From positions 1 through 48,090 of the forward strand of contig CAZNWX010000001.1 in assembly GCA_964576415.1 (NCBI GenBank): a stretch of 48,090 nucleotides of DNA, given 5' to 3'. Position 1 is the stretch's first letter. Each line of letters opens with the position of its first letter. The DNA comes from an uncultured Magnetovibrio sp. (GTDB lineage: Bacteria > Pseudomonadota > Alphaproteobacteria > Rhodospirillales > Casp-alpha2). The position numbers and the translations under genes are program-made. Under the pieces are notes generated by a model that did no database searches, was not told where the DNA came from, and was given only the letters and a program-made list of their open reading frames with translations. Positions 14,879-47,898 of the stretch are shown here, one piece after another.

Positions 14879-15008
14879 ATTTATGCGGACTTTACTCGGG
14901 TATTACGACTTGAATAATCTATCTGAAGCCTTAATTACCGAGTGAGCGGCGGTTTTATCAACGGCTGTTGGCCGATCTCACAAGCACTTGCCTCTGAAAG
15001 GACCCGTC

Positions 15009-16355: not shown

Positions 16356-16502
16356 CATCGGCCGCTAGACACCAGCCCTCGAGTCAGGGTTTACTGATCT
16401 CTCTGCACCGCGATCGGCTGTCTTATTGCGCCACCGACTTATTTCGCCCGCCGAAGTGGTTTTCCACCAGACCGCGCTGATCTTCTCGCTTTAAAAATAG
16501 AC

Positions 16503-18020: not shown

Positions 18021-18050
18021 ACCCCGCCCTAGTTCGACTAAAAAATCAAT

Positions 18051-19294: not shown

Positions 19295-19319
19295 CTTCAG
19301 CAAGTTTCAAAATATCCTA

Positions 19320-23378: not shown

Positions 23379-23388
23379 GTATGGCGTT

Positions 23389-24941: not shown

Positions 24942-24974
24942 TTGGGCCATGCGACTCTTTAAATCACCGGCTGA

Positions 24975-26318: not shown

Positions 26319-26349
26319 CCCTGAACCGGGGCTCCTGGGCATACTAACA

Positions 26350-27746: not shown

Positions 27747-27846
27747 ATGATAAAATTCTCCGCTGAGTTTGTTGCGGTTGGCATGTTAATCTAGTCGGTA
27801 GGGATAAATACACTGGTGTTTAGCCCCAAAAATTTTGGAGAGATTT

Positions 27847-29868: not shown

Positions 29869-30221
29869 TAATCTATTAAGATAAGCTTCTTTCTTAAAAC
29901 TCCTTAAAGTTGGTGTTTTCTTCAGGGCTCTTGATTTTTAGCACAGGTTTCAAACATCGAGAACCCACCTCTGGGTAATAAAAAAATCAACTTGCTTAAC
30001 GCTCCATATAAGAGACTAAATGCTAAATTAAGATGTGTTATTTTAATCCCGTCTAAATGAATTTCTTGACGGTGAGCTATGAAGACACAGGCGATTTCAA
30101 CCTCTATTGCCCATCAGATAAAATGGCACCTCTATGCTTTGATATTCGAAACTAGTTCGAGCATATGTGTGCCAGATTCACCTTGGTCGCGGTTGATACG
30201 GTTTCCCGCGCTTAAAACTAA

Positions 30222-31436
30222 ATGAGAATGTCGTTGTCCATTGGCTGGCTGAGGAAAAGCATCCGTGATATTTCCTTTATTTGGAAATGTAAGAAATGTT
30301 GGATGCTACCTAAACAGGCTGAAATTCTTATATATGATGCAAATGGTCGCGAGTTCTTACTTAAATATTTATCAGCGTGGTCTGTTGAAACCCTTCATGT
30401 GCGTGGCGAATATATAAATATTCCAGTGCTTTTAGATAGCCTGCTGCGTGGGGGTAGGAGTCGAGCTGATAGTTATATTAATGCATACATAGCGCGAGTT
30501 AATCCAAAACTTATCATAACATTTGTCGACAACAACTCGCGCTTTTACCGCCTGAGCCGAGAGTTCCCTGAATCAAAAACAATTTTTCTTCAGAACGGCG
30601 GACGCGGTTACTATGCGGATATCTTTGAATGGCTCGAAAATTACTCGTCCACCGATGGCGAGCTACACGTTGATGTTATGGGGACTTTTGGCTCAGCCGT
30701 TGCCGCCAAATATTCAAGATCCATTGGCGGCCTCAGCGCGCCATTGGGGAGCCTGAAAAGTAATCAGATACAAAAATGGCCGAAAATAGAAAAAGAGGTA
30801 ATCGCTTTTATATCCCAGTACCGAACTAACAATGGGTTTACCATGGGCGGTAGATTTTTCTCGTTTAAAGAACATTTCGAGCCCGTGGACAGAATGGTGC
30901 TGGGATTTCTCGTTCAATATGCAAAAAAACGATCAAAAAAATTAAAGATTGTTCAACGTTTTTCCAATAACAGTGCCAATATGAAGTCTGAACAAGTATA
31001 TTTTTCCCGCCTTACCAACGGATTTTGCGAGTTTTATGAATCTTGCGACAACACAAGCAGTTACCACGCAATTGATAAATCCGAAGTGACAGTAGGTATA
31101 GATAGCACACTTGCTTATGAGTCGGCGGCGCGCGGAAATAAAACGGCCTTATTTCCTATTCGGACGCATTGGTTTCAACTGAAATCATGGACTTTTGGTT
31201 GGCCAGGTAATTTCCCACCAGAAGGTCCATTTTGGACTAATAACCCTGATTTGAAAAAGTTCGAGCAGATACTCGATACTTTGTTTTCTATCGACGAGTC
31301 ACAGTGGTGGAAGATGTTGGGAACAGTTGGCTATGATAAAATAATGAAATATGATCCCGGAAATTCAATCTTACAATCTCTAATAAAAGAAACGCTCAGT
31401 CCAAGGGGAAAGGGCCAAAAACAAAAACCAATCTGA
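30222..31436 (+). CDS. Hypothetical protein; possible GT-B-like surface carbohydrate transferase (AT-rich, probably foreign)
   Basis: 404-aa ORF. 'VGIDSTLAYESAARGNKTALF' resembles the C-terminal sugar-donor-binding helix region of GT-B/capsule-type transferases. G+C is far below that of neighbouring genes. Confidence 0.55.
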   Translation: MRMSLSIGWLRKSIRDISFIWKCKKCWMLPKQAEILIYDANGREFLLKYLSAWSVETLHVRGEYINIPVLLDSLLRGGRSRADSYINAYIARVNPKLIITFVDNNSRFYRLSREFPESKTIFLQNGGRGYYADIFEWLENYSSTDGELHVDVMGTFGSAVAAKYSRSIGGLSAPLGSLKSNQIQKWPKIEKEVIAFISQYRTNNGFTMGGRFFSFKEHFEPVDRMVLGFLVQYAKKRSKKLKIVQRFSNNSANMKSEQVYFSRLTNGFCEFYESCDNTSSYHAIDKSEVTVGIDSTLAYESAARGNKTALFPIRTHWFQLKSWTFGWPGNFPPEGPFWTNNPDLKKFEQILDTLFSIDESQWWKMLGTVGYDKIMKYDPGNSILQSLIKETLSPRGKGQKQKPI

Positions 31437-32187
31437 AAATGTTTATTTAGCAGATACTAATAGTATGGATCCTCAGTATGATTTCTAATACTGAATGGGA
31501 TTTCACAAATATAACGCCTATATGCAGTATGGTAATGTAAAGCCGTTATGTTGAGATAAATAAAAAAGGCTTTTTAAGGCCTCATTTTGCTGATTACGAA
31601 CTAGAAAACTAATTAGCGTATTCGTCCTCTTTTTTCAAAAAGCGTGCAAGAATCCCCCATCATGAAGCTGGTGCTGGGACGTGGGCACCCTGAGTCGTGT
31701 CTTACGCGGAGGTTTAACACATGGTTCACGTCGACAATCGGCAGACAGGTTATTTCGAAGATGGCATAAGATCGGGTCAAACTTGTGAAAGGGCTTTTCC
31801 TGCCTCAAATTGTAGACTTAAAAGTGTTGCAAGAATTGCCACTAAAAGAATTAGTTTATTTGACGAGAATGATAGAAGACTCAATCTCGGCTATCACTTC
31901 TTTTTATATCGCGAGTTGGACGCGGATCAGATGCTGGGGCCGAACACATCCGAAACAGCTTCATTTTATGTAGTTCGCCAACCTCAGGATGGTCAGAAAA
32001 TTTCATGAGTCGCTTAAGCACTATGATAGAGAAGCGTGGCCGATATTGGATATTACCAAACATTCACTAAGCGGCGCTTTGAGAGAAGGCTATTTAAAAA
32101 GAGCAAACATCACTCGTATAGCACGCATGCGCCAATTGGTGAACCCAGGTCTTTGCGACATCGGCCGCAACTAAAGGACGTTCCGAA

Positions 32188-33620: not shown

Positions 33621-34652
33621 TTGGGTCTGGAAAGTTTAAAAACCTGCCTGGTCACTGGCGGTGCGGGGTTCATCGGCAGTCACCTCGTCGACCGGTTGAT
33701 TGCCGACGGGCACAAGGTTCGAGTGATCGACAACTTTGTTAATGGCCGCTCGGAAAACCTTGCCAATGCACGTTCCAGTGGACGGCTGGAAGTTGTGGCA
33801 GCTTCTGTCGCCAACAGATCAGGAATCTCGCATGCCTTCGACGGCGTTGATTGGGTATTTCATATGGCTGCTATGGCCGACATCGTGCCGTCGATTGAGA
33901 ACCCGACTATTTATCATGAGGCGAATGTGGAAGGCACACTTTGCGTGTTAGAAGAGGCGCGAAAGGCTGGTGTTGCGCGTTTTATTTATGCCGCCTCGTC
34001 CTCGTGCTACGGCATCCCGGACGTCTATCCAACGCCGGAGGCCACGCCCGCAGCTCCCACGTACCCTTATGCTTTGACCAAATATATGGGCGAGCAGTAT
34101 GTCATGCACTGGGCGAAAATTTATGGACTGGAGGCCGTCTCGCTACGGATGTTCAATGTGTTCGGCCCGCGCCATCGCACAGGTGGTACCTACGGCGCAG
34201 TATTTGGTGTGTTTTTGGCGCAAAAGCTTGCGGGCAAACCGATGACCATCGTTGGCGATGGCGAGCAAACTCGCGACTTCACTTTTGTTAGTGACGTGGT
34301 CGACGCTTTCGTAAAGGCAGCTCAGGGGGACTGCACAGGCAAAATTTACAATGTTGGCTCTGATAACACTTACAGCGTTAATTATTTAGCTGCATTGCTT
34401 GGCGGGGAGATGGTCAACATCCCTAAGCGCCCAGGTGAGCCCGACATTACGTACGCCGATATTAGCCTCATCAAGCGTGACCTAGGCTGGCGTCCCGAAG
34501 TGAGCTTTGAAGACGGTGTGCGGACAATGCTTGACAACATCGAGGGCTGGCATGGTGCCCCGGTCTGGACCGTGGACGAAATTGCGACCGCCACCGCGAA
34601 CTGGTTTAAGTATCTTGGGGCTGACGAAGATGCCAGCGGCGGAAAGGGTTAA
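33621..34652 (+). CDS. NAD-dependent sugar epimerase/dehydratase (extended SDR)
   Basis: 'CLVTGGAGFIGSHLVDRLI', 'ASSSSCYG' and 'YALTKYMGE' (YxxxK). TTG start preceded by GGAGAA. Confidence 0.85.
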   Translation: MGLESLKTCLVTGGAGFIGSHLVDRLIADGHKVRVIDNFVNGRSENLANARSSGRLEVVAASVANRSGISHAFDGVDWVFHMAAMADIVPSIENPTIYHEANVEGTLCVLEEARKAGVARFIYAASSSCYGIPDVYPTPEATPAAPTYPYALTKYMGEQYVMHWAKIYGLEAVSLRMFNVFGPRHRTGGTYGAVFGVFLAQKLAGKPMTIVGDGEQTRDFTFVSDVVDAFVKAAQGDCTGKIYNVGSDNTYSVNYLAALLGGEMVNIPKRPGEPDITYADISLIKRDLGWRPEVSFEDGVRTMLDNIEGWHGAPVWTVDEIATATANWFKYLGADEDASGGKG

Positions 34653-34659: not shown

Positions 34660-36207
34660 ATGGCAGACGAAATAAACCAATCCGTATTGAAAAAAATTCA
34701 AAGTATTGAAGAGCTGGCCAAACGAACTAGGGATGCTCAGGATGCTGGTAAAACAGTGGTGCTCTGCCACGGAGTATTTGACCTGGTTCACATGGGGCAC
34801 ATTCGCCATTTTGATATAGCGCGCAAGGAAGGCGACCTTCTTATCGTTACCACGACCGCCGACGCCTTTGTCAATAAAGGCCCTGGCCGGCCGATCTTCA
34901 CTGATCAGCTGCGCGCCGAAATGCTCGCCGCCTTGCAAATGGTCGATTGGGTCGGCATTAATTATGGACCCACGGCCGAATATGTGCTCGACACCATTCG
35001 GCCAGACGTCTACGTGAAGGGATCCGACTACGAAAATCCCGAGGAAGATGTCACGGGAATGATTCTACGCGAACGCGACGTAGTCGAGAAACACGGCGGC
35101 AAAGTCGTCTTCACGAGAGACATCAACTTCAGTTCGTCCGAGTTGATAAACAAATACCTCGGCGTATACGACGCGCCGTTGCAAAACTACCTCGACAGGC
35201 TCCGCGGCACTGATACTGCCCAAAAGATCGAGGATTTGATCGAGAAGGTCCGCGACTTCAAGGTGCTGATTGTCGGTGATGCCATCATTGACGAATACCT
35301 CTACGTAGAGGCTATGGGCAAGTCGGCGAAAGAGTCGATGATTGCGACCCGCTACCAGAATTCCGAACTTTTTGCTGGTGGCGTTTTCGCGGCCGCCAAC
35401 CACGTGGCAAGCCTTTGTGCGGAAGTGGAAATCATTACTACGCTCGGCAATCTCGATAGTCACGAGAAGTTTATCCGCCGTAACCTGAAACCCAATGTCA
35501 AGTTGACGCCGGTGCATCGCGACGGCATTCCAACGACCAAGAAGTCGCGTATCGTGGAGCGTGGTTACAATCGTAAACTCTTCGAAATCTACTACTTCGA
35601 CGACACTCCTGCTCAGCCTGAAATTCAGCAGGTTATCGACGATTTAATCGCCGAACGTGCACCAGCCTTCGACTTGGTGATTGTCACCGATTTTGGCCAT
35701 GGGCTGATCACCTCCTCGACCATAGAAGCCCTGCAATATGGAGCCCGGTTCCTAGCAGTCAACACCCAGACCAACAGCGCGAACATTGGCTACAACTTGA
35801 TCACGCGCTATTCGAAGGCGGACTATATTTGCATCGACGCTCCAGAGGCCCAACTTGCCACCTCAGACCGCCGCTCCAATGTGGAAACTCTGGTCTCGCA
35901 GATCATACCGAAAAGGGTTCAGTGTCCGCGCATCACCGTTACCCATGGCAAGATGGGCTGTGTCGCGTACCAGGCTAAAAAGCCCCCGGTGCGCGTGCCG
36001 GCTTTCACCAAGACCGTCGTCGATACCGTCGGTGCGGGCGATGCTTTTTTGGCCATCACTTCACCGCTGGCCGCGGCTGGTGGCGATTATGAGCATATCG
36101 GTTTCGTGGGCAATGCCGCGGGCGCCATCAAGGTCGGCACACTGGGCCATAGGGCGCCCATCGAAAAAGTGCCGCTAATGCGGTTCATTACCACGTTGTT
36201 GAAATAA
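34660..36207 (+). CDS. Bifunctional protein: N-terminal cytidylyltransferase-family nucleotidyltransferase fused to a C-terminal PfkB-family sugar kinase (HldE/RfaE-like, inverted domain order)
   Basis: N-terminus 'VVLCHGVFDLVHMGHIRHFDIARKEGDLLIVTTTAD' is the HxGH nucleotidyltransferase motif. C-terminus 'DTVGAGDAFLA' is the PfkB signature. ATG 34660 starts 7 nt after the upstream stop, and the longer track ORF overlaps the previous gene. Confidence 0.85.
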   Translation: MADEINQSVLKKIQSIEELAKRTRDAQDAGKTVVLCHGVFDLVHMGHIRHFDIARKEGDLLIVTTTADAFVNKGPGRPIFTDQLRAEMLAALQMVDWVGINYGPTAEYVLDTIRPDVYVKGSDYENPEEDVTGMILRERDVVEKHGGKVVFTRDINFSSSELINKYLGVYDAPLQNYLDRLRGTDTAQKIEDLIEKVRDFKVLIVGDAIIDEYLYVEAMGKSAKESMIATRYQNSELFAGGVFAAANHVASLCAEVEIITTLGNLDSHEKFIRRNLKPNVKLTPVHRDGIPTTKKSRIVERGYNRKLFEIYYFDDTPAQPEIQQVIDDLIAERAPAFDLVIVTDFGHGLITSSTIEALQYGARFLAVNTQTNSANIGYNLITRYSKADYICIDAPEAQLATSDRRSNVETLVSQIIPKRVQCPRITVTHGKMGCVAYQAKKPPVRVPAFTKTVVDTVGAGDAFLAITSPLAAAGGDYEHIGFVGNAAGAIKVGTLGHRAPIEKVPLMRFITTLLK

Positions 36208-36246: not shown

Positions 36247-37248
36247 ATGTCGAATAGGAAATGGCGGGTCATGGTAACCGGCGGCGCGGGCTATGTCGGC
36301 AGTGCCCTGGTGCCAGCGCTTCCCGATGCGGGCCACGAGGTCTCAGTATTGGATCTCTATCTCTACGGCGACGATATTTTTGACGAAATCAAGGGCCGGA
36401 CAGGCTTTCGCGAGACTCGGGGCGACCTGCGCGACCTGGAGACGTTGCAGCGCGCGCTGGAAGGCTGCGATGCAGTGATCCATCTGGCCTGCATCTCCAA
36501 TGATCCTTCCTACGACCTAGATCCGGACCTAGGCAAATCCATCAATTACGATGCATTCCGCCCGCTGGTTAGCGCATCCAAGGTTGCTGGGGTCAAGCGT
36601 TTCATCTATGCCTCCTCGTCGAGCGTCTATGGCGTCAAATACGAGCCCGAAGTGACTGAGGATTTAGCACTTGAGCCGCTTACTGACTACTCAAAGTTCA
36701 AGGCGCTTTGTGAAAAAGAACTCGAAGAAGAGCGCGAGCCTGGGTTTGTGACGTGCACCATTCGCCCCTCAACCGTTTGCGGGTATGCTAAACGCCAGCG
36801 CCTTGACGTGGTGGTCAACATCTTCACTAATCATGCGGTCAATAACGGCCGTATCCGGGTCTTTGGCGGCACTCAAAAACGTCCAAACATTCATATCGCC
36901 GATATGGTTCGGCTTTATCTGTTCCTACTCGACCAACCGGATGATAAAATTGACGGGAAGATTTACAACGCTGGCGACGAGAACCATACGCTCATGGAAC
37001 TTTCGGAGATCGTCAAGAAGGTGGTTGGTCCGGACCTGGAAGTGGACGTGGAGCCAACTGATGATTTGCGTTCCTACCACGTTACAGGCAAGAAAATCCG
37101 TGACGAGCTAGGTTTCGAACTCGAGCACAACGTGGAAGACGCGGTGCGTGATTTGGCCAAGGCCTTCGCTGAGGGCAAGCTGCCCCATGCTTTGGATGAT
37201 AAGCGCTATTTTAACATCAAACTGATGCAGAACAGGAAACTCAGCTAG
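36247..37248 (+). CDS. NAD-dependent sugar epimerase/dehydratase (extended SDR), second copy
   Basis: 'VMVTGGAGYVGSALV', 'ASSSSVYG' and 'YSKFKALCE' (YxxxK). Confidence 0.85.
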   Translation: MSNRKWRVMVTGGAGYVGSALVPALPDAGHEVSVLDLYLYGDDIFDEIKGRTGFRETRGDLRDLETLQRALEGCDAVIHLACISNDPSYDLDPDLGKSINYDAFRPLVSASKVAGVKRFIYASSSSVYGVKYEPEVTEDLALEPLTDYSKFKALCEKELEEEREPGFVTCTIRPSTVCGYAKRQRLDVVVNIFTNHAVNNGRIRVFGGTQKRPNIHIADMVRLYLFLLDQPDDKIDGKIYNAGDENHTLMELSEIVKKVVGPDLEVDVEPTDDLRSYHVTGKKIRDELGFELEHNVEDAVRDLAKAFAEGKLPHALDDKRYFNIKLMQNRKLS

Positions 37249-37260: not shown

Positions 37261-37881
37261 GTGTTGATTGGTATTGATTTCGATAACACCATCGCCGGTT
37301 ATGACGAAGTGTTCGCGTTGGCTGGCAAGGCGGAAGGCCTTTTGGAACCACGGTTTAGCGGGCCAAAACGTGAAATTCGTGACTACATCCGGACCCTGGA
37401 AAACGGTGAACGACTATGGATGGCGCTGCAGGGCCGAGTCTACGGTGTCCATATGGCTAAAGCCCGGCTAATTGAGGGAGTGGGGGGCTTCCTGACCCGT
37501 TGCCGTGAACGCGAGCTTGCAGTCTGTATCGTCAGCCATAAGACCCGGTTTGGCCACTTTGACCAAGACAAGGTCGACCTCCGGAACGCAGCCATGACAT
37601 GGATGGCGGCCAAGGGCTTTTTCGACCCCGCCGGTTTCGCCCTGCAGCGCGACGCGGTGCATTTTGCCGAAACCCGGAGCGAGAAGGTAGCCCGAATCGC
37701 CGCGCTTGGCTGTTCTCATTTTATTGACGACCTGAAGGAAGTGTTCCTCGAAGAGGCCTTTCCGGCTGAGACGAAGAGCTATCTCCTGTCCACCGAAAAA
37801 CCCACCCCGCAAGGGCCCTTCGCGGTGTTTCCGGCATGGAGCGGTATCACGAATGCCGTATTTCGAGATCTCGAACGATAG
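37261..37881 (+). CDS. HAD-superfamily phosphatase-like protein
   Basis: 'LIGIDFDNTIAGYD' (DxDxT nucleophile motif), 'CIVSHKT' and 'FIDDL'. GTG start. Confidence 0.6.
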   Translation: MLIGIDFDNTIAGYDEVFALAGKAEGLLEPRFSGPKREIRDYIRTLENGERLWMALQGRVYGVHMAKARLIEGVGGFLTRCRERELAVCIVSHKTRFGHFDQDKVDLRNAAMTWMAAKGFFDPAGFALQRDAVHFAETRSEKVARIAALGCSHFIDDLKEVFLEEAFPAETKSYLLSTEKPTPQGPFAVFPAWSGITNAVFRDLER

Positions 37882-38899
37882 CGTCCCCCGTGATCTGCGC
37901 TGCGCCGCCGAAAGGCTTTGTGCCCGGCCGGTGACTGGCATGGAGCGGGGGCAAGCGGGTGGCAACAACCGGATATTTAAGGTGGCAACCGTCGAGGCGG
38001 CCTATGCCTTAAAAGTTTATCCTGTTATCGCTGACGATCCGCGCGACAGGCTAGGTGTCGAATTCACCGCCCTGAGCTTCATGTCGGGTCATGGCCTCGG
38101 CAATGTGCCTGGCCCAGTCCGTCAAGACCCGACGGCCAATCTAGGTTTGTTCGAATGGATCGAAGGTGAGGCCATCGAATTCCCCACAGAGATGGATATC
38201 GATGCAGCAGTTGAATTCGCGGGCACCCTGCATCGGCTCAGCGGCCTCGACGAGGCGCGCCGGTTGCCAAACGCCTCGGAGGCCTGCTTATCGGCGGCGG
38301 AGACCTTAGATCAGGTGGCGCGCCGGTTAACGCGCTTGGACAAGGCGGCGGCTAATCATCCGGCGCTGGCTGCGTTTCTGACGCGGGATTTCCGCCCGGC
38401 TTTCGAGGCCCGACGAGACGCCACCTGGAAGCAACTTGCCACTTGGGCAGAGGACCCCGCGGATCAGTTAGACGTTGCGCGCCTGACCCTGAGCCCTTCG
38501 GATTTTGGTTTTCACAACAGCTTGCGCGTGCCGAGCGGCGAGGTGGTGTTTTTCGATTTTGAATACTTTGGCTGGGACGACCCGGTTAAACTAACCTCAG
38601 ACTTCATCTTGCATCCGGGAATGAGCCTGACGGAAGGCCAACGCCGCCGGTTCGTCGAAGGAGCGAAGACAGTCTTTTCTGGTGACAAGACTTTTGCGTC
38701 GCGGCTCGCGCTTATGTATGCCTTCTTCGGATACCGGTGGTGCATGATTATTTTGAATGAATTTTTACCGGAACGCTGGCGTCGACGCGCCTTTGCCACA
38801 GAACAAGACCGCACGGCGGCTCAGCTGCGCCAGCTAGAAAAAGCGCGGCTGCTACTAGACCGAGTTGAAGAAGCTGGAGGACTGTTTCCTTATGACTAA
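37853..38899 (+). CDS. Aminoglycoside phosphotransferase/choline-kinase-fold small-molecule kinase
   Basis: 'GGNNRIFKV....YALKVY' nucleotide-binding region, 'LSPSDFGFHNSL' (HxDxxxxN-like catalytic loop) and 'VVFFDFEYFGWDDP' (DFE metal-binding). The start is uncertain (ATG 37853 or ATG 37940). Confidence 0.75.
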   Translation: MPYFEISNDSVPRDLRCAAERLCARPVTGMERGQAGGNNRIFKVATVEAAYALKVYPVIADDPRDRLGVEFTALSFMSGHGLGNVPGPVRQDPTANLGLFEWIEGEAIEFPTEMDIDAAVEFAGTLHRLSGLDEARRLPNASEACLSAAETLDQVARRLTRLDKAAANHPALAAFLTRDFRPAFEARRDATWKQLATWAEDPADQLDVARLTLSPSDFGFHNSLRVPSGEVVFFDFEYFGWDDPVKLTSDFILHPGMSLTEGQRRRFVEGAKTVFSGDKTFASRLALMYAFFGYRWCMIILNEFLPERWRRRAFATEQDRTAAQLRQLEKARLLLDRVEEAGGLFPYD

Positions 38900-39740
38900 C
38901 CGATCTCTCTTAACCGCCAATCTGCCGTCGACACCACTTGACGACCACTCAAAAGCCCTGAGACGCATGGTTATCCAGGCACTGGACGGGGGCGGCCGCG
39001 GACATATCGGTTCTTCCATGTCTTTGATCGAAATACTGCGTGTCCTCTACGACGATGTCTTGGCCTTCCGTGCTGACGATCCTACGTGGGAAGGGCGAGA
39101 TCGTTTGATTCTCAGTAAGGGTCACGGCTGTTTGGCGCTTTACGCGATCCTGGCGAGCAAAGGCTTTTTTCCAGTCACGGAGTTAAGAGATTTCTGCCGA
39201 GCCTCTTCATTTCTGGGTGGGCATCCTGAATGGGGCGAAGTGCCGGGGGTGGAAGCTTCCACTGGAGCGCTCGGTCATGGTCTGTCCATCGCCGTTGGGA
39301 TGTCACTAGCGGCTCGTATGCGGGGCCAGAAGCACAAGATCGTCACCGTCACCGGCGATGGCGAGATCAACGAGGGTTCTATTTGGGAGGCCGCCATGTC
39401 AGCAGGGAAGCACCAGCTCGACAACCTGACTGTAATGGTCGACTACAATAAAATCCAATCCTATGGATTTACCGATGAAGTTCAGCCTTTGGAACCCCTC
39501 GTTGATAAATGGCGCGCCTTCGGCTTCAGTACCATAGATATCGATGGTCATGATGTGGCGGCGCTGCGGGCGCTCCTAACAAGTCTGCCGATGGAGCCAG
39601 GAAAGCCGTCGGCTATAGTTTGCCACACAGTTAAGGGTAAGGGAATCCCATTCGCAGAGCATGAGCCCACGTGGCATCACAAGTCGAACCTGCCCGCCGA
39701 AGATATTGCCGCCCTGTATGCGGCGCTGGAAGTTGACTGA
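38892..39740 (+). CDS. Transketolase, N-terminal (PP-binding) subunit
   Basis: 'GHIGSSMSLIEIL', 'DRLILSKGHGCLALYA', 'GALGHGLSIAVGM' and 'TGDGEINEGSIWEA'. ATG 38892 follows GGAGGA and overlaps the upstream stop by 8 nt. Confidence 0.9.
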   Translation: MTNRSLLTANLPSTPLDDHSKALRRMVIQALDGGGRGHIGSSMSLIEILRVLYDDVLAFRADDPTWEGRDRLILSKGHGCLALYAILASKGFFPVTELRDFCRASSFLGGHPEWGEVPGVEASTGALGHGLSIAVGMSLAARMRGQKHKIVTVTGDGEINEGSIWEAAMSAGKHQLDNLTVMVDYNKIQSYGFTDEVQPLEPLVDKWRAFGFSTIDIDGHDVAALRALLTSLPMEPGKPSAIVCHTVKGKGIPFAEHEPTWHHKSNLPAEDIAALYAALEVD

Positions 39741-40675
39741 TGCGCAAGACCTGCCTGAATAAAGTTTACGATCTGGCGCAACGCGACCCGCGTGTGGTGT
39801 TCATTGGTTCCGACCTCGGCCCGGGCGTGTTGTCCGAGATGAAAGCGGAAATGCCCGACCGATTTTATATGGAAGGCATTGCTGAACAAAACGTCATCGG
39901 CATGGCAGCCGGAATGGCGCTCGAAGGCTACATCCCTTACGTAAACACGATCGCTACCTTTTTGACCCGGCGCTGTTTTGAACAGGTCGCCGTTGACGTC
40001 TGTCTGCACAACCTGCCGGTTCGGTTGATCGGTAATGGTGGGGGACTTGTCTATGCGCCGCTAGGCCCGACTCACGAAGCCATTGAAGACATCGCGATTA
40101 TGCGCGCGTTGCCTAATATGACCGTTCTCAGTGTCAGCGATGCGGAGGAGATGGCGGTGATGATGGAACAGACTTTAGACTGGCCGGGCCCCATCTACAT
40201 CAGGCTGGGCAAGGGTGGCGACCCAGTCGTCTCGGATCCCGTCGATAATTTCCGTATAGGTAAGGCGATTTGCAAACGCAAAGGCACCGATACTGCGCTC
40301 GTATCAACCGGCGTGCTTGTGAAGCCATGCCTAGACGCGGCAGAAGCCCTCAAAGCGGAGGACATCTCCTGCGCGGTCGTGCATCTGCCAACCGTCAAGC
40401 CGCTCGACGTTGACGGGCTGGTTGCGGAGTTGTCCCAAGGGACGTTCATCATTTGCGTGGAGGAACACTTACGCACCGGCGGACTCGGATCTGCAGTGCT
40501 GGAAGCTCTATCGGATCGGCCGGGCGGTCTCGCCGGGTCCGTTACTCGCCACGGCCTTCCAGACGAATTCGTGCATACCTATGGCTCACAGAATATTTTG
40601 TGGGAAAAGTTTGGTCTGGACGCCGAAGGCATTGCCGAAGTGGTTCGCGCAACCTTGAAAAAGGCTGTCGCCTAA
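39740..40675 (+). CDS. Transketolase, C-terminal (Pyr-binding) subunit
   Basis: 'EGIAEQNVIGMAAGMALEGYIPYVNTIATF' and 'GPTHEAIEDIAIMRALPNMTV'. TGATG overlap with the N-terminal subunit gene. Confidence 0.9.
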   Translation: MRKTCLNKVYDLAQRDPRVVFIGSDLGPGVLSEMKAEMPDRFYMEGIAEQNVIGMAAGMALEGYIPYVNTIATFLTRRCFEQVAVDVCLHNLPVRLIGNGGGLVYAPLGPTHEAIEDIAIMRALPNMTVLSVSDAEEMAVMMEQTLDWPGPIYIRLGKGGDPVVSDPVDNFRIGKAICKRKGTDTALVSTGVLVKPCLDAAEALKAEDISCAVVHLPTVKPLDVDGLVAELSQGTFIICVEEHLRTGGLGSAVLEALSDRPGGLAGSVTRHGLPDEFVHTYGSQNILWEKFGLDAEGIAEVVRATLKKAVA

Positions 40676-42130: not shown

Positions 42131-42754
42131 ATGACCCAGATCGACTTCATCCAGTCTTTGCATGCCAGCACATCGCGCGATTACGTGCAGCGCGTGGTTG
42201 AGTCTGACAAAGCGGAATGCGCAGCCGTCGCCAGGGAATTTGGCGCCGATTATTGGGACGGCGAACGCCAATTTGGCTACGGCGGTTACCGCTACGACGG
42301 CCGCTGGTTGCCTGTAGCAGAACGTATGGCGACACACTATAACCTCAAGGCCGGTGACCGAATCCTTGATGTTGGCTGCGGCAAGGGCTTCCTGCTTTAC
42401 GAATTTACCCGCGCCGTTCCGGGTATTGTGGTGGCCGGGCTCGACATCTCTGAATACGGTATCGCTAACGCAAAAAAAGAAGTCCGCCCGTTTCTGCAAG
42501 TTGGCTCTGCTCAGGATTTGCCCTACGGTGACGACGAATTTGATTTCGTATTTTCCTTGGTCTCTGAGATTGAGCGCGTCGGCAAGGGCGGCGCCAAGTA
42601 TATCATGGTCGAGTCCTTCCGGAATGAACGCGAGAAAATGAACCTGCTCTATTGGCAATTGACTTGTTTGAGCTTCCATTCAGTCGACGACTGGAAATGG
42701 CTCTACGACCAGGCCGGCTACCAGGGTGATTATGGGTTCATTTATTTTGAATGA
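42131..42754 (+). CDS. Class I SAM-dependent methyltransferase
   Basis: 'ILDVGCGKGFLL' motif I, 'VAGLDISEYGI' and 'FDFVFS'. Confidence 0.85.
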   Translation: MTQIDFIQSLHASTSRDYVQRVVESDKAECAAVAREFGADYWDGERQFGYGGYRYDGRWLPVAERMATHYNLKAGDRILDVGCGKGFLLYEFTRAVPGIVVAGLDISEYGIANAKKEVRPFLQVGSAQDLPYGDDEFDFVFSLVSEIERVGKGGAKYIMVESFRNEREKMNLLYWQLTCLSFHSVDDWKWLYDQAGYQGDYGFIYFE

Positions 42755-42796
42755 GGATGGGCACGTCGGACCCGAGAGAATAAACGAGCAAATGAC

Positions 42797-43786
42797 ATGT
42801 TAAGTAAAAAAACCGAACCGGTCATCCCCGCCAATGAACAAATCCGTAACTACCTGCGGCGCCGGATTAAACCAGAAGGCACCTATGCTGAACTGCTTGA
42901 ATTTCCGTCCTATTTTGAGATTGAAACCGTAAATGCCTGCAATGCGCGCTGCCCCATGTGCACCATCGCCGAATGGACACGCAAGACGCCAACTATGCGC
43001 AATCCGCTATTTGAAAAAATCGCCGATGAGCTGATTGAAAACCGTAAATACGTCAAGCGGGTCAGCCTTTATCGCGACGGTGAGCCCCTTTTAGACAAAA
43101 AGCTTGCGGACCGAACAGCTGTGCTCAAGCAGGGCGGCATTAACGAGGTCGCCATAAGCAGCAACGTCGCTTTGCTCGACGAGCAGAAATCGCGCGATCT
43201 GTTGGAAGCGGGTCTTGATACTATCATTATGTCGATCGACAGCCTGAAAAAGGATGTTTATGAGGCAATTCGCGTTAAATGCGATTTTGAAGTTGTGATG
43301 GCAAATGCGCAACGCTTCATCGAACTTCGCAACCAAATCCGGCCCAGCTCAAAGGTTTGGGTTCGGATGATCCGCCAGGAGAGTAACTACGACGAATGGC
43401 CTGCTTTTGAGGCGTTTTGGAAAGAACGTCTTGCCGACAATGACCGGGTTAATTACCACACACTGCATAACTGGGGTTCGCAGTTGAAAGGCTTCAATGC
43501 TGTCGAAGAAAACTCGGAATATGGTATTCCCTGTGTCGCTCTGTGGTCGCTGATGGTGATCTTTGGCAACGGTGACGTGCCGCTTTGCAACGTTGATTAT
43601 AACAATATTCATCCTTGCGGTAGCGTTGCCGAGAGCTCTATTCGCGATGTCTGGCGTGCCCAGACTTTGGAACGAATCCGCCATCAGCATCTAAATGGTG
43701 AAAAAGCTAAAACCGACATTTGCGCTAACTGTAACGTTTGGAGCGAACCGCCGGACGTGAAAAAAGTGGAGCGGGATTTTCAGTGA
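42797..43786 (+). CDS. Radical SAM enzyme with C-terminal SPASM/twitch-like Cys cluster, copy A
   Basis: 'ETVNACNARCPMCTI' (CxxxCxxC), 'SLYRDGEPLLD', and C-terminal 'PCVALW....GDVPLCNVDYN....PCGSV....DICANCNVW'. Confidence 0.85.
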   Translation: MLSKKTEPVIPANEQIRNYLRRRIKPEGTYAELLEFPSYFEIETVNACNARCPMCTIAEWTRKTPTMRNPLFEKIADELIENRKYVKRVSLYRDGEPLLDKKLADRTAVLKQGGINEVAISSNVALLDEQKSRDLLEAGLDTIIMSIDSLKKDVYEAIRVKCDFEVVMANAQRFIELRNQIRPSSKVWVRMIRQESNYDEWPAFEAFWKERLADNDRVNYHTLHNWGSQLKGFNAVEENSEYGIPCVALWSLMVIFGNGDVPLCNVDYNNIHPCGSVAESSIRDVWRAQTLERIRHQHLNGEKAKTDICANCNVWSEPPDVKKVERDFQ

Positions 43787-43820
43787 CCGTTTACCAGGTA
43801 GGTACGGCAAGGCACAAGGT

Positions 43821-44696
43821 GTGATCTCTCCAGTCCTCATTATTGGCGGTGACAGCGCTATTGCAATGTGCATTAGACAAGCCATCGCAGACATGGACGG
43901 GAAGGTCTTTGCAACCAGCCGTCGCGCAGAGTTACTTAGGGCGCCTGGATGGTTTCATCTGGATCTAGCCGAGCCTGCAAGCCAGTGGCCGGAGTTGCCG
44001 GCCTGTAATTACGCGGTCATCTGTGCGGCCGTAACTTCGCTCGCGGAGTGCGAAAAACAGCCCGAATACACGCACCGGATCAACGTCGATGCGGTCGGTG
44101 TCCTAGCAGCGCGCTTCGCCACGAATGGTACCTACACGGTATTCCTCTCCACTAGTCAGGTATTCGACGGGAACAAGTCTCATCCCTCACCACATGCTAG
44201 GCCATCGCCCTCCAATATCTACGGTGCGCAAAAGGCGGCGGCGGAAGAAGCCTTTTTGAATAGCGGCGCACCTGGGGCCATCCTGCGGTTGGGGAAAGTC
44301 TTAATTCCGCCTGTCGGCCTGTTCGAGGGCTGGGCGGCTAAACTCCGCGGCAATTATGAAATCGCTGCGTTTGACGATATGTGGTTGGCGCCCGTATCCC
44401 CGGCCGCAACGGTGGAGGCTATTGTTAGATTGCTGGAGCGGCGTGCGAATGGAATTTTTCAATTGACCGCGCCGGACCAAATCAGCTACTTACGCGCTGC
44501 GCAGCAATTGGCGACTCACTTTTCGGCTTCAATCGGACGCGTGGCTGCGGGCTCCGCCCACGACGCAGGCCTTGGATATCTAGCGCCGGCAAACGTGACC
44601 CTAGATACACATTCATTAACGGCAGCGCTCAGCATTCAGCCCGCCCGGTCGCAGGTGGTCTTGGCTGAATATTTTGATACCTTCGCCACGAATTGA
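43821..44696 (+). CDS. RmlD-like (dTDP-4-dehydrorhamnose reductase family) nucleotide-sugar reductase, copy A
   Basis: 'VLIIGGDSAIAMCI' Rossmann-like N-terminus and 'YGAQKAAAEEAF' (YxxxK, compare RmlD 'YG.TKL.GE'). GTG start after AAGG. Confidence 0.65.
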   Translation: MISPVLIIGGDSAIAMCIRQAIADMDGKVFATSRRAELLRAPGWFHLDLAEPASQWPELPACNYAVICAAVTSLAECEKQPEYTHRINVDAVGVLAARFATNGTYTVFLSTSQVFDGNKSHPSPHARPSPSNIYGAQKAAAEEAFLNSGAPGAILRLGKVLIPPVGLFEGWAAKLRGNYEIAAFDDMWLAPVSPAATVEAIVRLLERRANGIFQLTAPDQISYLRAAQQLATHFSASIGRVAAGSAHDAGLGYLAPANVTLDTHSLTAALSIQPARSQVVLAEYFDTFATN

Positions 44697-44697
44697 A

Positions 44698-45624
44698 ATG
44701 GTTCCCGCCAAATCGTTTTGGCAAGTGCCAATGGAGCATAAATTGGAGTACCCTAATAAGATCCAGGTCGAGACCTTCCTTGGCTGCAACGCACGCTGCA
44801 CCATGTGCACGATCCACGATTGGGCTCGCCCTCACGGGCAGATGGCCGATGCTGTATTCGACCGAATCGTTGAACAGGCGGCGGACTTCACGGATCACCT
44901 TGCGGTTATGAGTCTCTACATGGACGGCGAACCTTTGATGGATGCGGCTATGGAAGCTCGAATCACTCAGTGCAAGGCAGCCGGTTTAGGGAATGTCGGA
45001 TTTTCGACAAACGGGTCGCTGTTGCGACCCAAGCGCGTCGCCCCTTTACTAGATGCCGGTCTCGATTGGGTGAACTTCTCGTTCGATACAATGGATCCGG
45101 AGGTCTACGAGGCGACCCGGGTTCGCCTGAAGTTTGATTCCGTCTACGACAACATCCGTACTTTCATCGAAGCGCGAAATGCTGGGGGCTATGCGACCAA
45201 GGTGATTCTCCGGTACTTGGAAACTGAAAACCCACCACCGCCGGATGGCTTCGAGATTTACAAACGGACCTGGTCTAATCTGCTGCGTCCGGAAGACGAA
45301 ATCCAATACTCGGAAGTCCACAACTGGGGCAGTGCCGAAGGCCCGTTACAGGTGGATGGCACCGTGCCCTGCGATTACGTTTTCGACAACATGATCATCT
45401 TGCGTGATGGCACAGTGCCGCTTTGCTGCGTCGACTACAACGCTGAGTACATATTCGGCAACGTCATGGAAGACGGAATACTCGACATTTGGAACAGCAA
45501 TGCTTTCTTGCAGGTGCGCGAACAGCATCGCTCTGGGCGTCGCAAAGAAATTGCGAAGTGTGCCCAGTGCAATATTCCGGACATGTACGAACAAAGTAAA
45601 CGCATCTACGGAGCTGAGACTTGA
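44698..45624 (+). CDS. Radical SAM enzyme with C-terminal SPASM/twitch-like Cys cluster, copy B (paralog of 42797..43786)
   Basis: 'ETFLGCNARCTMCTI', 'SLYMDGEPLMD', 'HNWGS' and 'PCDYVF....GTVPLCCVDYN....KCAQCNI'. ATG 44698 starts 1 nt after the upstream stop. Confidence 0.85.
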   Translation: MVPAKSFWQVPMEHKLEYPNKIQVETFLGCNARCTMCTIHDWARPHGQMADAVFDRIVEQAADFTDHLAVMSLYMDGEPLMDAAMEARITQCKAAGLGNVGFSTNGSLLRPKRVAPLLDAGLDWVNFSFDTMDPEVYEATRVRLKFDSVYDNIRTFIEARNAGGYATKVILRYLETENPPPPDGFEIYKRTWSNLLRPEDEIQYSEVHNWGSAEGPLQVDGTVPCDYVFDNMIILRDGTVPLCCVDYNAEYIFGNVMEDGILDIWNSNAFLQVREQHRSGRRKEIAKCAQCNIPDMYEQSKRIYGAET

Positions 45625-45777
45625 ATCTTGGCATCGGTGTTAAACATGCAACTTGCCGAAGAAATCTGGCTGTAAACACCCAGACGTCATGACCGCCTAG
45701 CCCGAAACGCAGTAATCCCCGTCGGGGCTGGCGCCCACTCGGCTTCCTGGCCTAACAATCTTTATAAGAGCACCGAC

Positions 45778-46929
45778 ATGCACAACAAACCGTTCCTGTC
45801 TTTCTACGAAGAAAAAAACATTATCCCCGTTCGCCAAGATATCAGTGACCGAGCTAAGCACTTTCGTCGCCGTGGCGCGTTGTTCTTACACCTTGGGATC
45901 ATTCCTGCGATGCTCGGCGGTAAAAGTGTTCTCGAGTTTGGCCCTGGAAGTGGCGACAACGCTGTGTTCACCGCATCTCTCTCACCGACACGTTATCTAC
46001 TGGTCGACGGCAACGCCGCTTCCATCTCAGCAATACAAGAAAAGCGCGCCGACGGCACGTTACCAGCAGCTACCACAGAAGTAGTCAAGAGTGAAATCTT
46101 GAAATTCGAAACGCCTGAAAAATTTGATTTTGTATTCTGCGAAGGCGTGATCCCAGGCCAAGTCAACCCGCACGACTATCTTCGCCATATTGCTTCGTTC
46201 GCGACTCCCGGGGGCTGCGTAACCATAACGACTATCTCAGCAATTTCAGCATTTGCTGATATTTGCCGGCGCATGGTCAAACCGCACCTAGTCAGCTTAT
46301 CGCCCAAGTTCGATACCGTTACCGCCTATGCAACGGAATTGTTTGGCTCGCACCTTGATACCCTGAACGGTATGAGCCGCCTACATCAGGATTGGGTGCT
46401 CGACAACATTATGAATCCATGGACCCGGCAGGGATTATTCTCGATCGGCGAGGCCATTGAGACCCTCAAGGGCGAATTCGACGTTTACGGCTCATCGCCA
46501 AAATTTCTGACCGATTGGCGTTGGTACAAATCTATCGTCGAGCCAGAAACGGGCATCAACAATATGGCGAAATTACAGTATGCCGAACTCGCCCCAGTCT
46601 TTATCAATCATCGGCTCTCACCCGAAGAATCCGGCATCGATAACCCCGCCCGCCTGGCTGAACTTTGCCAAACTGCATATGATGTTCATGTGCCGTTATG
46701 GCAGGCAGACGACAGCAATGGTGTGATGCAACAATTCATCCCCATCGTCGAAGATATCATCGCGCTGTTCGGCGCGCCCAACCATCCAACTGCAAGCGCA
46801 CTTGCCGACTATGTGGCGGCCATGAGGCGAGCCGCGGCCGGCGAGCGCTTCCCCGACATGGGGGCATTCAAATCGCTGTTTGGGCGCGGCCAGCAATATG
46901 TATCTTTTGTCCGAAAATCAGGTGCCTGA
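45778..46929 (+). CDS. Class I SAM-dependent methyltransferase with a long C-terminal extension
   Basis: 'VLEFGPGSGDNAV' motif I, 'LLVDGNAASI' and 'FDFVFCEGVI'. Confidence 0.7.
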   Translation: MHNKPFLSFYEEKNIIPVRQDISDRAKHFRRRGALFLHLGIIPAMLGGKSVLEFGPGSGDNAVFTASLSPTRYLLVDGNAASISAIQEKRADGTLPAATTEVVKSEILKFETPEKFDFVFCEGVIPGQVNPHDYLRHIASFATPGGCVTITTISAISAFADICRRMVKPHLVSLSPKFDTVTAYATELFGSHLDTLNGMSRLHQDWVLDNIMNPWTRQGLFSIGEAIETLKGEFDVYGSSPKFLTDWRWYKSIVEPETGINNMAKLQYAELAPVFINHRLSPEESGIDNPARLAELCQTAYDVHVPLWQADDSNGVMQQFIPIVEDIIALFGAPNHPTASALADYVAAMRRAAAGERFPDMGAFKSLFGRGQQYVSFVRKSGA

Positions 46930-46974
46930 GACCGCCATCGATACTATTATCTAAAATAAATCTGTCTATGGAAG

Positions 46975-47898
46975 ATGTCTTCTCCCCACGTAACGATGTC
47001 CGACGCTAAACCATATTTGGATAAGAAGGTCCTCATTTTCGGTGGGTCAAGCTTCGTCGGTGGAGAACTGTTCCGCCGTATCGGTAACAATTCGATCGCA
47101 ACCTTCAATAGCACGTCGATACCGTCCGGCGTCAAGTTTGATGCAACCACAATGTCGCTGGCAGATCTTGTTCCCGATACGCATGAATTCACGGATGCTG
47201 TCATTCTTATCGGAGATACTGAACCGGACAGCTGCTTTAAATGCCAGGCCCGTTCGCAACTTCTTAATGTCGACTCCATTGAGAAACTGATTGACCAGTT
47301 GATTGCTGCGAATATTCGTCCCGTGTTTACCTCATCGGAGTTCGTCTTCGACGGCACCAAAGGTGAATACACAGAAACGGACGCGGCGCAGCCGATATTG
47401 ATTTACGGTGAACAAAAGCTATCGGTGGAACGCTACCTCCAAGCCGCAACTGATGATTACGCCATACTGCGCTTGGCGAAGGTATTCGGCACGACGCCCG
47501 GCGACGGAACACTGTTCTCGGGCATGGTAGAACCGATTATGACTCAATCGGTAATTAGATGCGCGGCGGATCAGCGGTTTTCGTCGGTTTTCGTTGGTGA
47601 CGTTGTGGCTGCCATTGTTGCTGCGATCGAGAAACCGCTAAACGGCGTTTTTCACATCGCCGGACCGGCGGGAGGAACGCGGTTAGAATTTCTCCAGACG
47701 ATGATGGCAGAGGTTGCGAAATACACGGCAGTAACGGCAAAATCGGTTGCGTGCTCTATCCATGATTTTGATCTCCCGGAAGACCGGCCGGTTGATGTCT
47801 CGATGTCGCCGTCAAAGTATGTGAATGCGACGGGCACAACGTTGATGAGCGCTCAGGAAGCTTGCGAAATCATTTGTCGCAAATGGTTCAGTCGATAG
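46975..47898 (+). CDS. RmlD-like nucleotide-sugar reductase, copy B
   Basis: 'KVLIFGGSSFVGGELF' and 'YGEQKLSVERYL' (YxxxK), with the same overall layout as 43821..44696. Confidence 0.65.
   Translation: MSSPHVTMSDAKPYLDKKVLIFGGSSFVGGELFRRIGNNSIATFNSTSIPSGVKFDATTMSLADLVPDTHEFTDAVILIGDTEPDSCFKCQARSQLLNVDSIEKLIDQLIAANIRPVFTSSEFVFDGTKGEYTETDAAQPILIYGEQKLSVERYLQAATDDYAILRLAKVFGTTPGDGTLFSGMVEPIMTQSVIRCAADQRFSSVFVGDVVAAIVAAIEKPLNGVFHIAGPAGGTRLEFLQTMMAEVAKYTAVTAKSVACSIHDFDLPEDRPVDVSMSPSKYVNATGTTLMSAQEACEIICRKWFSR

Follow-up and report, generated by a model that had tools for sequence, protein, structure and literature searches.

What are two radical S-adenosylmethionine (SAM) enzymes doing beside two sugar reductases in what looks like a surface-glycan operon? 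The question is raised by a 48,090-nucleotide stretch of DNA from an uncultured Magnetovibrio sp. (GenBank assembly GCA_964576415.1, contig CAZNWX010000001.1, positions 1 to 48,090 of the forward strand), referred to here as the window. Between 42131 and 47898, six plus-strand genes encode two methyltransferases (MT1 and MT2), two radical SAM proteins (RS1 and RS2), and two RmlD-like members of the short-chain dehydrogenase/reductase (SDR) superfamily (SDR1 and SDR2). An original prediction made from the letters of the sequence saw in them a duplicated set of enzymes for two parallel radical tailoring steps on a nucleotide sugar, followed by keto reduction. The six open reading frames (ORFs) do lie where it placed them, in the order and on the strand given, and Pfam bears out their domains; the interpretation itself is partly supported, being broadly right on sugar tailoring and keto reduction. 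Judged by sequence and predicted fold, RS1 and RS2 are distant variants of the twitch radical SAM carbohydrate enzymes typified by BtrN, placed in a different genomic context. It is highly probable that they tailor a sugar, acting either on a nucleotide sugar or on the glycan, and we put at roughly 45% the chance that they do so as dehydrogenases coupled to the RmlD-like reductases.

To what family do RS1 (42797-43786, 329 amino acids) and RS2 (44698-45624, 308 amino acids) belong? Both match the Radical_SAM and SPASM families of Pfam, the former (PF04055) at 62.3 and 64.5 bits, respectively, against a cut-off of 29.5. The CX3CX2C triad (C48/C52/C55) is invariant in 91 family sequences, and the motifs quoted for the two proteins in the original prediction (ET..CNARC.MCTI, SLY.DGEPL.D, HNWGS, and G.VPLC.VDYN) are all present. 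Calling them SPASM enzymes claimed too much. Across alignments of 26 and of 91 members, the only conserved C-terminal cysteines are C246, C264, C309, and C312, which in RS1 are spaced C-x17-C-x44-C-x2-C, the same ligand spacing as in BtrN, and the CX2CX5CX3C block of SPASM domains is absent, with no CX5CX3C in either alignment. Since four conserved cysteines suffice for one auxiliary cluster, the C-terminal domain is assigned to the twitch type, with a single auxiliary cluster predicted, following the published definition (PMC9012708). The SPASM match is compatible with this, since the family concerned, PF13186, takes in twitch domains as well, that of BtrN among them. A Pfam scan found no RRE or other extra domain on either protein.

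BtrN is itself a twitch enzyme, with an auxiliary cluster held by four cysteines, and turns a ring carbinol into a ketone by two-electron oxidation (PMC9012708). When RS1 alone is compared with PDB sequences, BtrN is the sole significant match in the C-terminal domain (4.7e-13). When a profile of 91 family members is used, the match to BtrN reaches 1e-36 and spans core and C-terminal domain alike, with MoaA (3e-16), BlsE (4e-15), DesII (6e-10), and anSME (1e-9) as the runners-up, and the C-terminal domain of the profile by itself matches the BtrN twitch domain at 4e-18. The fold tells the same story. An AlphaFold (AF2) model of RS1 built from the 91-member alignment (mean pLDDT 95.3, pTM 0.92) has BtrN (4m7t) as its best Foldseek match in the PDB (E=5.8e-15, TM 0.78 on the target), while SpeY (E=4e-7) and AbmM are among the weaker ones. 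With an RS1/BtrN identity of ~20% in the structure match and no aminoglycoside genes as neighbors, RS1 and RS2 are best classed from their sequences as homologs of BtrN and not as orthologs; their neighbors are nonulosonic-acid, heptose-like, and O-antigen genes. The family is a large one. Over 100 orthologs of RS1 from other lineages are 56-69% identical to it, and an exhaustive search (E≤1e-30) yields 456 clusters at 50% identity. The C-methylation that had been entertained for RS1 and RS2 does not fit: they are not of the methylating class and have no B12 domain, and a role as radical SAM C-methyltransferases was rejected, with class B, B12-dependent candidates for that activity found elsewhere in the window, at 14988 and 27835.

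If these enzymes generate ketones, what would take the ketones up? SDR1 (43821-44696, 291 amino acids) and SDR2 (46975-47898, 307 amino acids) are extended SDRs and putative NAD(P)H-dependent keto-sugar reductases. Both contain RmlD_sub_bind (PF04321), SDR1 at 3e-27 and 95.8 bits and SDR2 at 3e-29 and 102.4 bits against a cut-off of 27, and both have the GG.S N terminus and the YG.QK motif noted in the original prediction. They are not RmlD orthologs, scoring 108.1 (SDR1) and 99.1 bits (SDR2) with the RmlD equivalog model TIGR01214, whose cut-off is 224. SDR2 has an intact glycine motif (GGSSFVG) along with SSEFVFDG and YGEQK; SDR1 keeps STSQVFDG and YGAQK, and its glycine motif is degenerate (GGDSAIA). 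Across genomes, the reductases that partner RS genes retain the Gly-rich motif, the catalytic Ser/Thr, and YxxxK, and for this reason they are read as probably active NAD(P)H reductases. They fall into two clades. The SDR2-type clade, with the signature G[AG]S[SG][FY]VG, is the usual neighbor of RS1 orthologs, and identity between SDR2 and the reductases that adjoin them reaches 53%. The SDR1-type clade (GGDSxI[GA]) is found beside RS homologs in magnetotactic and related alphaproteobacteria (L003, L014, L050, and L070). As a separate observation, the PDB sequence matches of SDR1 include MAT2-beta, the regulatory subunit of methionine adenosyltransferase, at ~5e-11, level with an archaeal RmlD. 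A non-catalytic, SAM-related partner role akin to that of MAT2-beta was considered for the SDR1 clade and may yet apply there, although the catalytic residues kept in the partner reductases weigh against it.

How regular is the association between RS1 and a reductase? One genome per species was scanned, giving 80 loci, and these and further contigs were searched with the proteins of the window; RS1 orthologs were defined by at least 50% identity and distant RS homologs by less than 33%. Since many contigs are short, all co-occurrence counts are lower bounds. An RmlD-like gene flanks the RS1 ortholog at 36 of 42 loci and lies within 700 bp at 23 of the 34 that have enough flank. It is upstream of RS1 at some loci and downstream at others, so the close pairing survives rearrangement, and because this pairing recurs across genomes, the earlier idea of a radical step followed by keto reduction is a reasonable one. 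The same 42 loci carry MT1-like genes (29), a split transketolase (25), an APH-like kinase (18), an HldE-like gene (15), and TIGR04324 (13) and TIGR04323 (11) proteins, with the counts for a conserved protein of unknown function and a second SDR falling within 15-18. At the five RS2-type loci, the search detected no RmlD-like gene (0/5 within 700 bp), while MT1-like genes are present at all five and the split transketolase at three. One of these loci (L009) does carry an RmlD-like gene, 2.4 kb away, in the order RS2-type gene, gene of unknown function, MT2-like gene, RmlD-like gene. At the 22 distant RS loci, the search detected neither an RmlD-like gene (0/20 within 700 bp), nor an MT1-like gene, nor a split transketolase, only a TktC-like gene at 2 of them.

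Other genes frequently join the pair. A WbuC-family cupin (TIGR04366, 91-119 bits against 42) occurs at ~25 loci and, where an RS1 ortholog is present, sits between the reductase and RS1. A flavoprotein resembling UDP-galactopyranose mutase (GLF-like) follows RS1 at ~14 RS1-ortholog loci, and a further radical SAM gene comes next at ~9, all but one of which have the flavoprotein too; the window has no such further radical SAM gene. One arrangement, seen at L019 (8553-13291) and in many relatives, runs MT1, RmlD-like reductase, WbuC cupin, RS1, mutase-like flavoprotein, and a third radical SAM/SPASM enzyme, and the cassette sometimes adds a B12 radical SAM enzyme, for up to four radical SAM genes in a single sugar cassette. 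RS loci are found in flagellar gene neighborhoods and with NeuB, NeuC, and cytidylyltransferase genes, and their carriers include Rhodospirillales, Magnetospirillum, Skermanella stibiiresistens SB22, Pelagibacteraceae, and Prochlorococcus, as well as Elusimicrobia, Omnitrophota, Planctomycetota, and some archaea. Fusions are also informative. Three of the 456 cluster representatives join the RS domain to a GT2 glycosyltransferase, one to an RmlC-type dTDP-4-dehydrorhamnose 3,5-epimerase, and one to a CMP-sugar-type cytidylyltransferase (CTP_transf_3). The RmlC-RS fusion lies in a nucleoside diphosphate (NDP)-sugar cluster with a nucleotidyltransferase-GmhB fusion, several SDRs, an aminotransferase, O-methyltransferases, and an E1-type thiamine diphosphate (ThDP) enzyme. 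These fusions to sugar enzymes, together with the lack of a precursor-peptide ORF (described below), place the RS family in nucleotide-sugar chemistry. The sugar-tailoring role proposed originally is thus favored, the more so as the closest solved relative, BtrN, acts on an aminocyclitol.

Do RS1 and RS2 perform the same reaction? RS1-type sequences have exactly seven conserved cysteines, all of them cluster ligands, and 53 of 56 carry Asn at position 265. At that position (RS1 numbering), all 15 RS2-type sequences carry Cys, which gives the motif PLCC beside the second auxiliary-cluster ligand, and 80% of them have another Cys at position 110. RS2-type proteins are also rarer, only ~30 proteins being at least 40% identical to RS2, and in other genomes they occupy the place of RS1 in the transketolase/HldE/MT1 cassette. 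A paper on HygY, to go by its title, reports that a single Cys sets the epimerase or dehydrogenase outcome in that twitch enzyme (PMC8611816). Taken with this precedent, as far as a title conveys it, Cys265 and the missing adjacent reductase in other genomes suggest that RS2 could be a self-contained epimerase and RS1 a dehydrogenase, a correlation drawn from a small sample. Residue 265, which adjoins a cluster ligand, is a candidate for this role if it reaches the active site. RS2 is the rarer, anciently diverged variant, and RS1 with its SDR is the widespread, conserved module. Since RS2 elsewhere replaces RS1 in the same cassette, yet both are present here, the organism probably makes two different modifications, or two sugars. 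At one RS2-type locus (L011, 10993-11181), a 62-amino-acid ORF directly downstream of the RS2-type gene encodes the N-terminal Rossmann part of an SDR (MKILVTAAGGFTGTHL...), apparently what is left of a reductase gene in decay rather than a precursor peptide.

How might all of these components work together? In the scheme that we infer, including its substrate, the position attacked, the dehydrogenase outcome, and a direct hand-over from RS to SDR, the upstream cassette would make a nucleotide-activated sugar, probably heptose-like. The transketolase could supply a ketose phosphate, which the HldE-like enzyme would phosphorylate and nucleotidylate; relatives add GmhA-like and GmhB-like genes. 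The CX3CX2C cluster of RS would then cleave SAM, and the resulting 5'-deoxyadenosyl radical would take a hydrogen from a carbinol carbon of the sugar. The second electron would pass to the single, fully Cys-ligated auxiliary cluster, leaving a keto-sugar. Using NAD(P)H, the adjacent RmlD-like reductase would reduce the ketone from the other face, for a net epimerization of the stereocenter. In relatives with the WbuC cupin, the sequence would be oxidation, isomerization of the keto intermediate, and then reduction, and MT1 and MT2 would methylate last. The four-Cys auxiliary cluster and the absence of a spare Cys in RS1-type sequences are consistent with such a BtrN-like alcohol dehydrogenation. 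A bolder and more tentative proposal, which we regard as doubtful when taken whole, is that RS1 and RS2 represent radical SAM nucleotide-sugar oxidases/epimerases that, with an RmlD-like reductase and often a WbuC cupin, replace the NAD-dependent 4-dehydrogenase or dehydratase entry into this chemistry, that the Asn or Cys at 265 sets dehydrogenase against self-contained epimerase, and that the products are new heptose-like surface or flagellar sugars in abundant environmental bacteria, among them SAR11, Prochlorococcus, magnetospirilla, and Elusimicrobia.

A number of points weigh against the coupling of an RS dehydrogenase to the reductase. The kinship with BtrN is distant, as the ~20% identity indicates. 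No NCBIfam model reaches its cut-off with RS1 or RS2, the best scoring 90 bits against 380, and every one of the more than 800 RS1 homologs carries a generic database name. A full-text literature search found no characterized member of the RS1/RS2 family and no characterization of the gene cassette. Twitch enzymes also catalyze epimerization (HygY, for example), gene adjacency is not proof of consecutive steps, and the substrate of the RmlD-like proteins could simply be the 4-keto product of the SDR dehydratase encoded upstream. RS2, given the extra Cys of its type and the lack of an adjacent reductase in other genomes (0/5), may act differently. The WbuC cupin and GLF-like gene of relatives are absent from the window, in which no recognizable GmhA or GmhB is encoded either; the heptose assignment rests on sub-threshold matches, the related loci having GmhA-like (88 against 209 bits) and GmhB-like (170 against 178) genes that fall short of their cut-offs. 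MT1, finally, may be inactive in the window (described below).

What else could the radical SAM enzymes be doing? They might, one and/or the other, perform redox-neutral or eliminating chemistry, either epimerizing a C-H center directly, like HygY, NeoN, and AbmJ, or dehydrating a diol, like AprD4 and DesII. In the dehydration variant, the RmlD-like enzyme would reduce the resulting ketone for a net deoxygenation, and AprD4/AprD3 provide the precedent of a radical dehydratase working with a reductase. For epimerization the precedent is AbmJ, a radical SAM heptofuranose C3 epimerase (PMC9978623), and a self-contained epimerase would suit the RS2-type proteins, with Cys265 in all 15 sequences, Cys110 in 80%, and no adjacent reductase elsewhere. 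In RS1-type proteins, however, every conserved Cys is one of the seven cluster ligands, which leaves no obvious hydrogen-atom donor, and Cys265, next to a cluster ligand, would have to reach the active site. Two-electron oxidation is favored as well by the fully Cys-ligated auxiliary cluster and by a family profile that matches BtrN at 1e-36 and DesII at 6e-10. In our estimation, redox-neutral or eliminating chemistry is rather doubtful.

Could the reductases instead be uncoupled from RS? They would then be ordinary 4-ketoreductases finishing a 4,6-dehydratase route from the SDR at 33621, and RS would come in elsewhere: its target might be the finished sugar, or the sugar once attached to the glycan, or it might work with the transketolase-like ThDP enzyme to form or rearrange C-C bonds. 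The upstream SDR would need a 4-reductase given its GDP_Man_Dehyd match (2.4e-58), and a Dongia locus (L095) has HldE-, GmhB-, RmlD-, MT1-, and MT2-like genes and no RS. ThDP enzymes accompany RS in unrelated clusters (the split transketolase in 25/42, the E1-type subunits beside the RmlC-RS fusion), and the GT2-RS fusions could indicate action at the transfer stage. Nevertheless, the tight RS1-reductase adjacency persists through several rearrangements of gene order, and a common keto-sugar chemistry is indicated by the RmlC-RS fusion and by the cupin gene that lies between reductase and RS1. We regard an uncoupled arrangement as unlikely. Much further down the scale comes the notion that the RS proteins mature a peptide or protein, either as enzymes of pathways for peptides that are made on the ribosome and modified after translation (RiPPs) or in the manner of anSME, with flagellin, a sulfatase, or a small precursor as the substrate. 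It could draw on the Pfam SPASM matches, on weak, sub-cut-off NCBIfam matches of RS1 and RS2 that include peptide and metalloenzyme maturases, and on the flagellin genes that lie beside some relatives. The best of the maturase models reaches 90 of the 380 bits needed, though, and in the family profile search of the PDB, BtrN outranks the peptide and protein maturases by 20 or more orders of magnitude, and the peptide maturases by ~24 or more. With four C-terminal cysteines and one predicted auxiliary cluster, no precursor ORF, no conserved small ORF or RRE domain seen, and sugar enzymes as neighbors and fusion partners, a two-cluster SPASM enzyme or RiPP maturase was rejected. This agrees with the original judgment that a RiPP role looked unlikely, and we consider a maturase very improbable.

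Whether or not the dehydrogenase-reductase coupling holds, how did the six genes come together? They had been described as a duplicated set. That is true of the pairs to the extent that RS1 and RS2 are clear paralogs (36% identity over 283 amino acids, E=1e-63) and SDR1 and SDR2 distant ones (26%, E=1e-17). It is not true of MT1 (42131-42754) and MT2 (45778-46929), which at 207 and 383 amino acids differ in size as reported and are moreover unrelated, having no significant similarity in pairwise comparison and only the fold in common. Recent tandem duplication was rejected on the identities: RS1 shares 56-69% with its orthologs in other orders but only 36% with RS2, and SDR2 shares up to 53% with foreign partner reductases but 26% with SDR1. 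On this evidence, the RS and SDR pairs are old paralogs brought together, with no duplicated unit. Speaking of two parallel triads likewise overstated the symmetry, since the methyltransferases are unrelated, RS2-type genes elsewhere lack an adjacent reductase, and it is SDR2, not SDR1, that resembles the usual partner of RS1 orthologs.

The six genes are tightly packed, with spacers of 1-45 bp and a single exception of 153 bp. The ATG of RS2 lies one base beyond the SDR1 stop codon, although the mechanically called ORF opens earlier, with a TTG at 44674. Between the six genes no peptide-sized ORF fits, the 153-bp gap holding just 23-amino-acid chance ORFs, and a check of the gaps and surroundings gave no precursor-peptide candidate, in keeping with the original prediction. 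Promoter- and terminator-like matches across the block show no excess over the shuffled expectation. Given this, the tight spacing, and the single direction, the genes are most simply read as co-transcribed. They had been placed at the distal end of the operon, which proves to be an effect of the window boundary. Metagenomic contigs that are 99-100% identical to the window (L004-L006) extend the gene array on the same strand past the window end, with a 408-amino-acid protein of unknown function, an ABC exporter (ABC_membrane plus ABC_tran), a 495-amino-acid protein of unknown function, an HpcH/HpaI aldolase, and a cytidylyltransferase. We read the six genes as an inner section of a long surface-glycan operon of the RfaH type.

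To briefly describe the methyltransferases, both have the class I fold according to Pfam. MT1 is small, matches Methyltransf_25/31/11 above cut-off, and has the SAM-binding motif VGCGKG; MT2 matches Methyltransf_23/31/12, has the motif EFGPGSG, and carries a C-terminal extension of ~220 amino acids. MT1 is shorter than its relatives, which have 216-221 amino acids. Compared with the otherwise identical contigs L004-L006, it has a clean 42-bp in-frame deletion at 42558-42561 that takes out 14 residues (ATLHNLGLANVTHA) right after the DFVFS motif, with a junction that shares GG only. This could be an inactivating strain variant or an assembly artifact, and because 14 core residues are absent, MT1 may be inactive. 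MT2 has no match among PDB sequences. Its family is sizeable, consisting of full-length proteins of ~380 amino acids at 39-50% identity that bear only generic names, and its neighborhoods are heterogeneous: an MT2-like gene stands beside the RS2-type gene at L009 and, as mentioned, another occurs without any RS in Dongia.

Upstream of MT1 lies a plus-strand cassette that includes the candidates for making the sugar. It begins with the SDR dehydratase/epimerase (33621-34652) whose GDP_Man_Dehyd match was given above and continues with the HldE-like bifunctional protein (34660-36207), in which a nucleotidyltransferase precedes a PfkB kinase, a reversed domain order, and whose score is below cut-off (172 against 521 bits). 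The second SDR (36247-37248), a conserved protein of 206 amino acids with no Pfam or NCBIfam match (37261-37881), an APH-like kinase (37853-38899), and the N part (38892-39740) and C part (39740-40675) of the split transketolase follow. A 2-oxoglutarate-Fe(II) oxygenase of the "sporadic carbohydrate cluster" family TIGR04324 (40908-41720; 7e-93, 310.7 bits against 150) and an LIC12192-family protein, TIGR04323 (41710-42120; 2.8e-44, 150 bits against 55), complete the series directly upstream of MT1. The split transketolase, APH-like kinase, and 206-amino-acid protein travel with the RS family across phyla. By analogy with the 7-deoxysedoheptulose route, it was considered that the kinase and transketolase might salvage 5-deoxyribose from 5'-deoxyadenosine.

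Ahead of the plus-strand array as a whole, at 8177-9333, stand a MarR-type regulator and an RfaH-like antiterminator. Upstream of these are a Wzy_C/O-antigen-ligase-like protein, a GT2, and a TylC3-type NDP-hexose C-methyltransferase (3411-4670, Methyltransf_13/14), which stands outside the main operon; TylC3-like genes adjoin an RS/RmlD-like pair at L001, L007, and L009, another sign of keto-sugar intermediates. Two separate legionaminic/neuraminic-type nonulosonic-acid gene sets occupy 9349-27746 in the one operon, one with LegB, LegC, a CBS-nucleotidyltransferase, NeuC, an LpxD-like N-acyltransferase, a B12 radical SAM enzyme, an acyl-CoA ligase, and NeuB and the other with NeuD, NeuB, NeuC, a formyltransferase, a PIG-L deacetylase, the amidotransferase WbuX, and a PseF-like cytidylyltransferase. 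The two sets suggest unusually acylated or amidinated Leg-type sugars. HisH/HisF amidino-transfer genes accompany WbuX, and two B12-binding radical SAM enzymes are encoded in the window. At ~28000-32000 the G+C content drops to 0.41-0.45, against ~0.52-0.57 on either side. The dip spans a KedN5-like B12 radical SAM C-methyltransferase of 677 amino acids (27835-29868) and an LA_1612-family, Leptospira-type O-antigen protein (30222-31436, 4.7e-96), and the segment looks like a horizontally acquired insert.

Why does this matter? To our knowledge, nearly all known radical SAM enzymes that act on sugars belong to antibiotic pathways (BtrN, DesII, AprD4, HygY, and NeoN). Here is a large family with a recurring reductase partner, and its genes lie in clusters for the surface and flagellar glycans of bacteria that are very abundant in the sea and in fresh water. 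If the oxidize-then-reduce model is true, the consequences would be 3-fold. (i) The keto-sugar chemistry of primary surface glycans would have a radical entry route. (ii) The unidentified sugars of the carrier organisms would be explained in part. (iii) Hundreds of "radical SAM/SPASM" genes at risk of being misread as maturases would gain a functional annotation. Since the carriers include the culturable S. stibiiresistens SB22, Magnetospirillum moscoviense BB-1, and Magnetospirillum sp. LM-5, the model is directly testable.

Is there any described pathway of this kind? The original prediction knew of none with this combination, which was too strong a statement, as both BtrN and a Campylobacter jejuni heptose dehydrogenase-epimerase-reductase system are documented. 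BtrN, the 2-deoxy-scyllo-inosamine dehydrogenase of the butirosin pathway (PDB 4M7T), shares with the RS family the radical SAM core, the twitch domain, and the Cys spacing, is its best profile and fold match, and acts on a small polyhydroxylated ring rather than a peptide. RS1, however, is ~80 amino acids longer, with an N-terminal helix and insertions, and its substrate is probably nucleotide-linked. The RS genes lie in a cell-surface glycan operon and are partnered by an RmlD-like reductase, whereas BtrN belongs to a 2-deoxystreptamine aminoglycoside cluster and its keto product enters the aminoglycoside pathway. The epimerases HygY, NeoN, and AbmJ and the twitch dehydrogenase SpeY are likewise radical SAM enzymes, several of them of the twitch type, that invert or oxidize sugar carbinol centers, but their similarity to RS is much weaker than that of BtrN and they act on secondary-metabolite intermediates; the RS1 type lacks a spare conserved Cys, and the RS2 type has one in a different setting. 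In apramycin biosynthesis, the radical SAM diol dehydratase AprD4 and the NADPH-dependent reductase AprD3 bring about C3' deoxygenation, the reductase finishing the job on a keto-sugar; deoxygenation was among the options named in the original prediction. AprD4 is not a BtrN-like twitch enzyme, and its model has no notable match among the best 25 NCBIfam matches of RS1 and RS2. The SPASM maturases (anSME, PqqE, SuiB, and the sactisynthases) resemble the RS proteins in their Radical_SAM and PF13186 matches and overall fold, but use two auxiliary clusters, seven or eight cysteines, and peptide or protein substrates, where the RS family has four cysteines and sugar-enzyme neighbors and fusions.

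The closest parallels in pathway logic come from surface polysaccharides. In the GDP-heptose routes of C. jejuni, a C4-dehydrogenase (Cj1427), a C3/C5 epimerase, and a C4-reductase have been shown biochemically (PMC10680097), and the order of oxidation, optional epimerization by a cupin, and NADPH-dependent reduction by an SDR is the one proposed here. The oxidant there is an NAD-dependent SDR recycled with alpha-ketoglutarate (PMC10680097) and not a radical SAM enzyme, and the reversed HldE-like protein, split transketolase, and APH-like kinase of the window have no C. jejuni counterpart. With the RmlB/RmlC/RmlD enzymes of dTDP-L-rhamnose synthesis, the likeness consists of the RmlD substrate-binding domain, the Ser/Thr, and the YxxxK of SDR1 and SDR2, along with the one RmlC-RS fusion. 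The RmlD equivalog cut-off is not reached and the six-gene block has no RmlA, RmlB, or RmlC; a radical SAM enzyme stands where the keto-generating enzyme would be expected.

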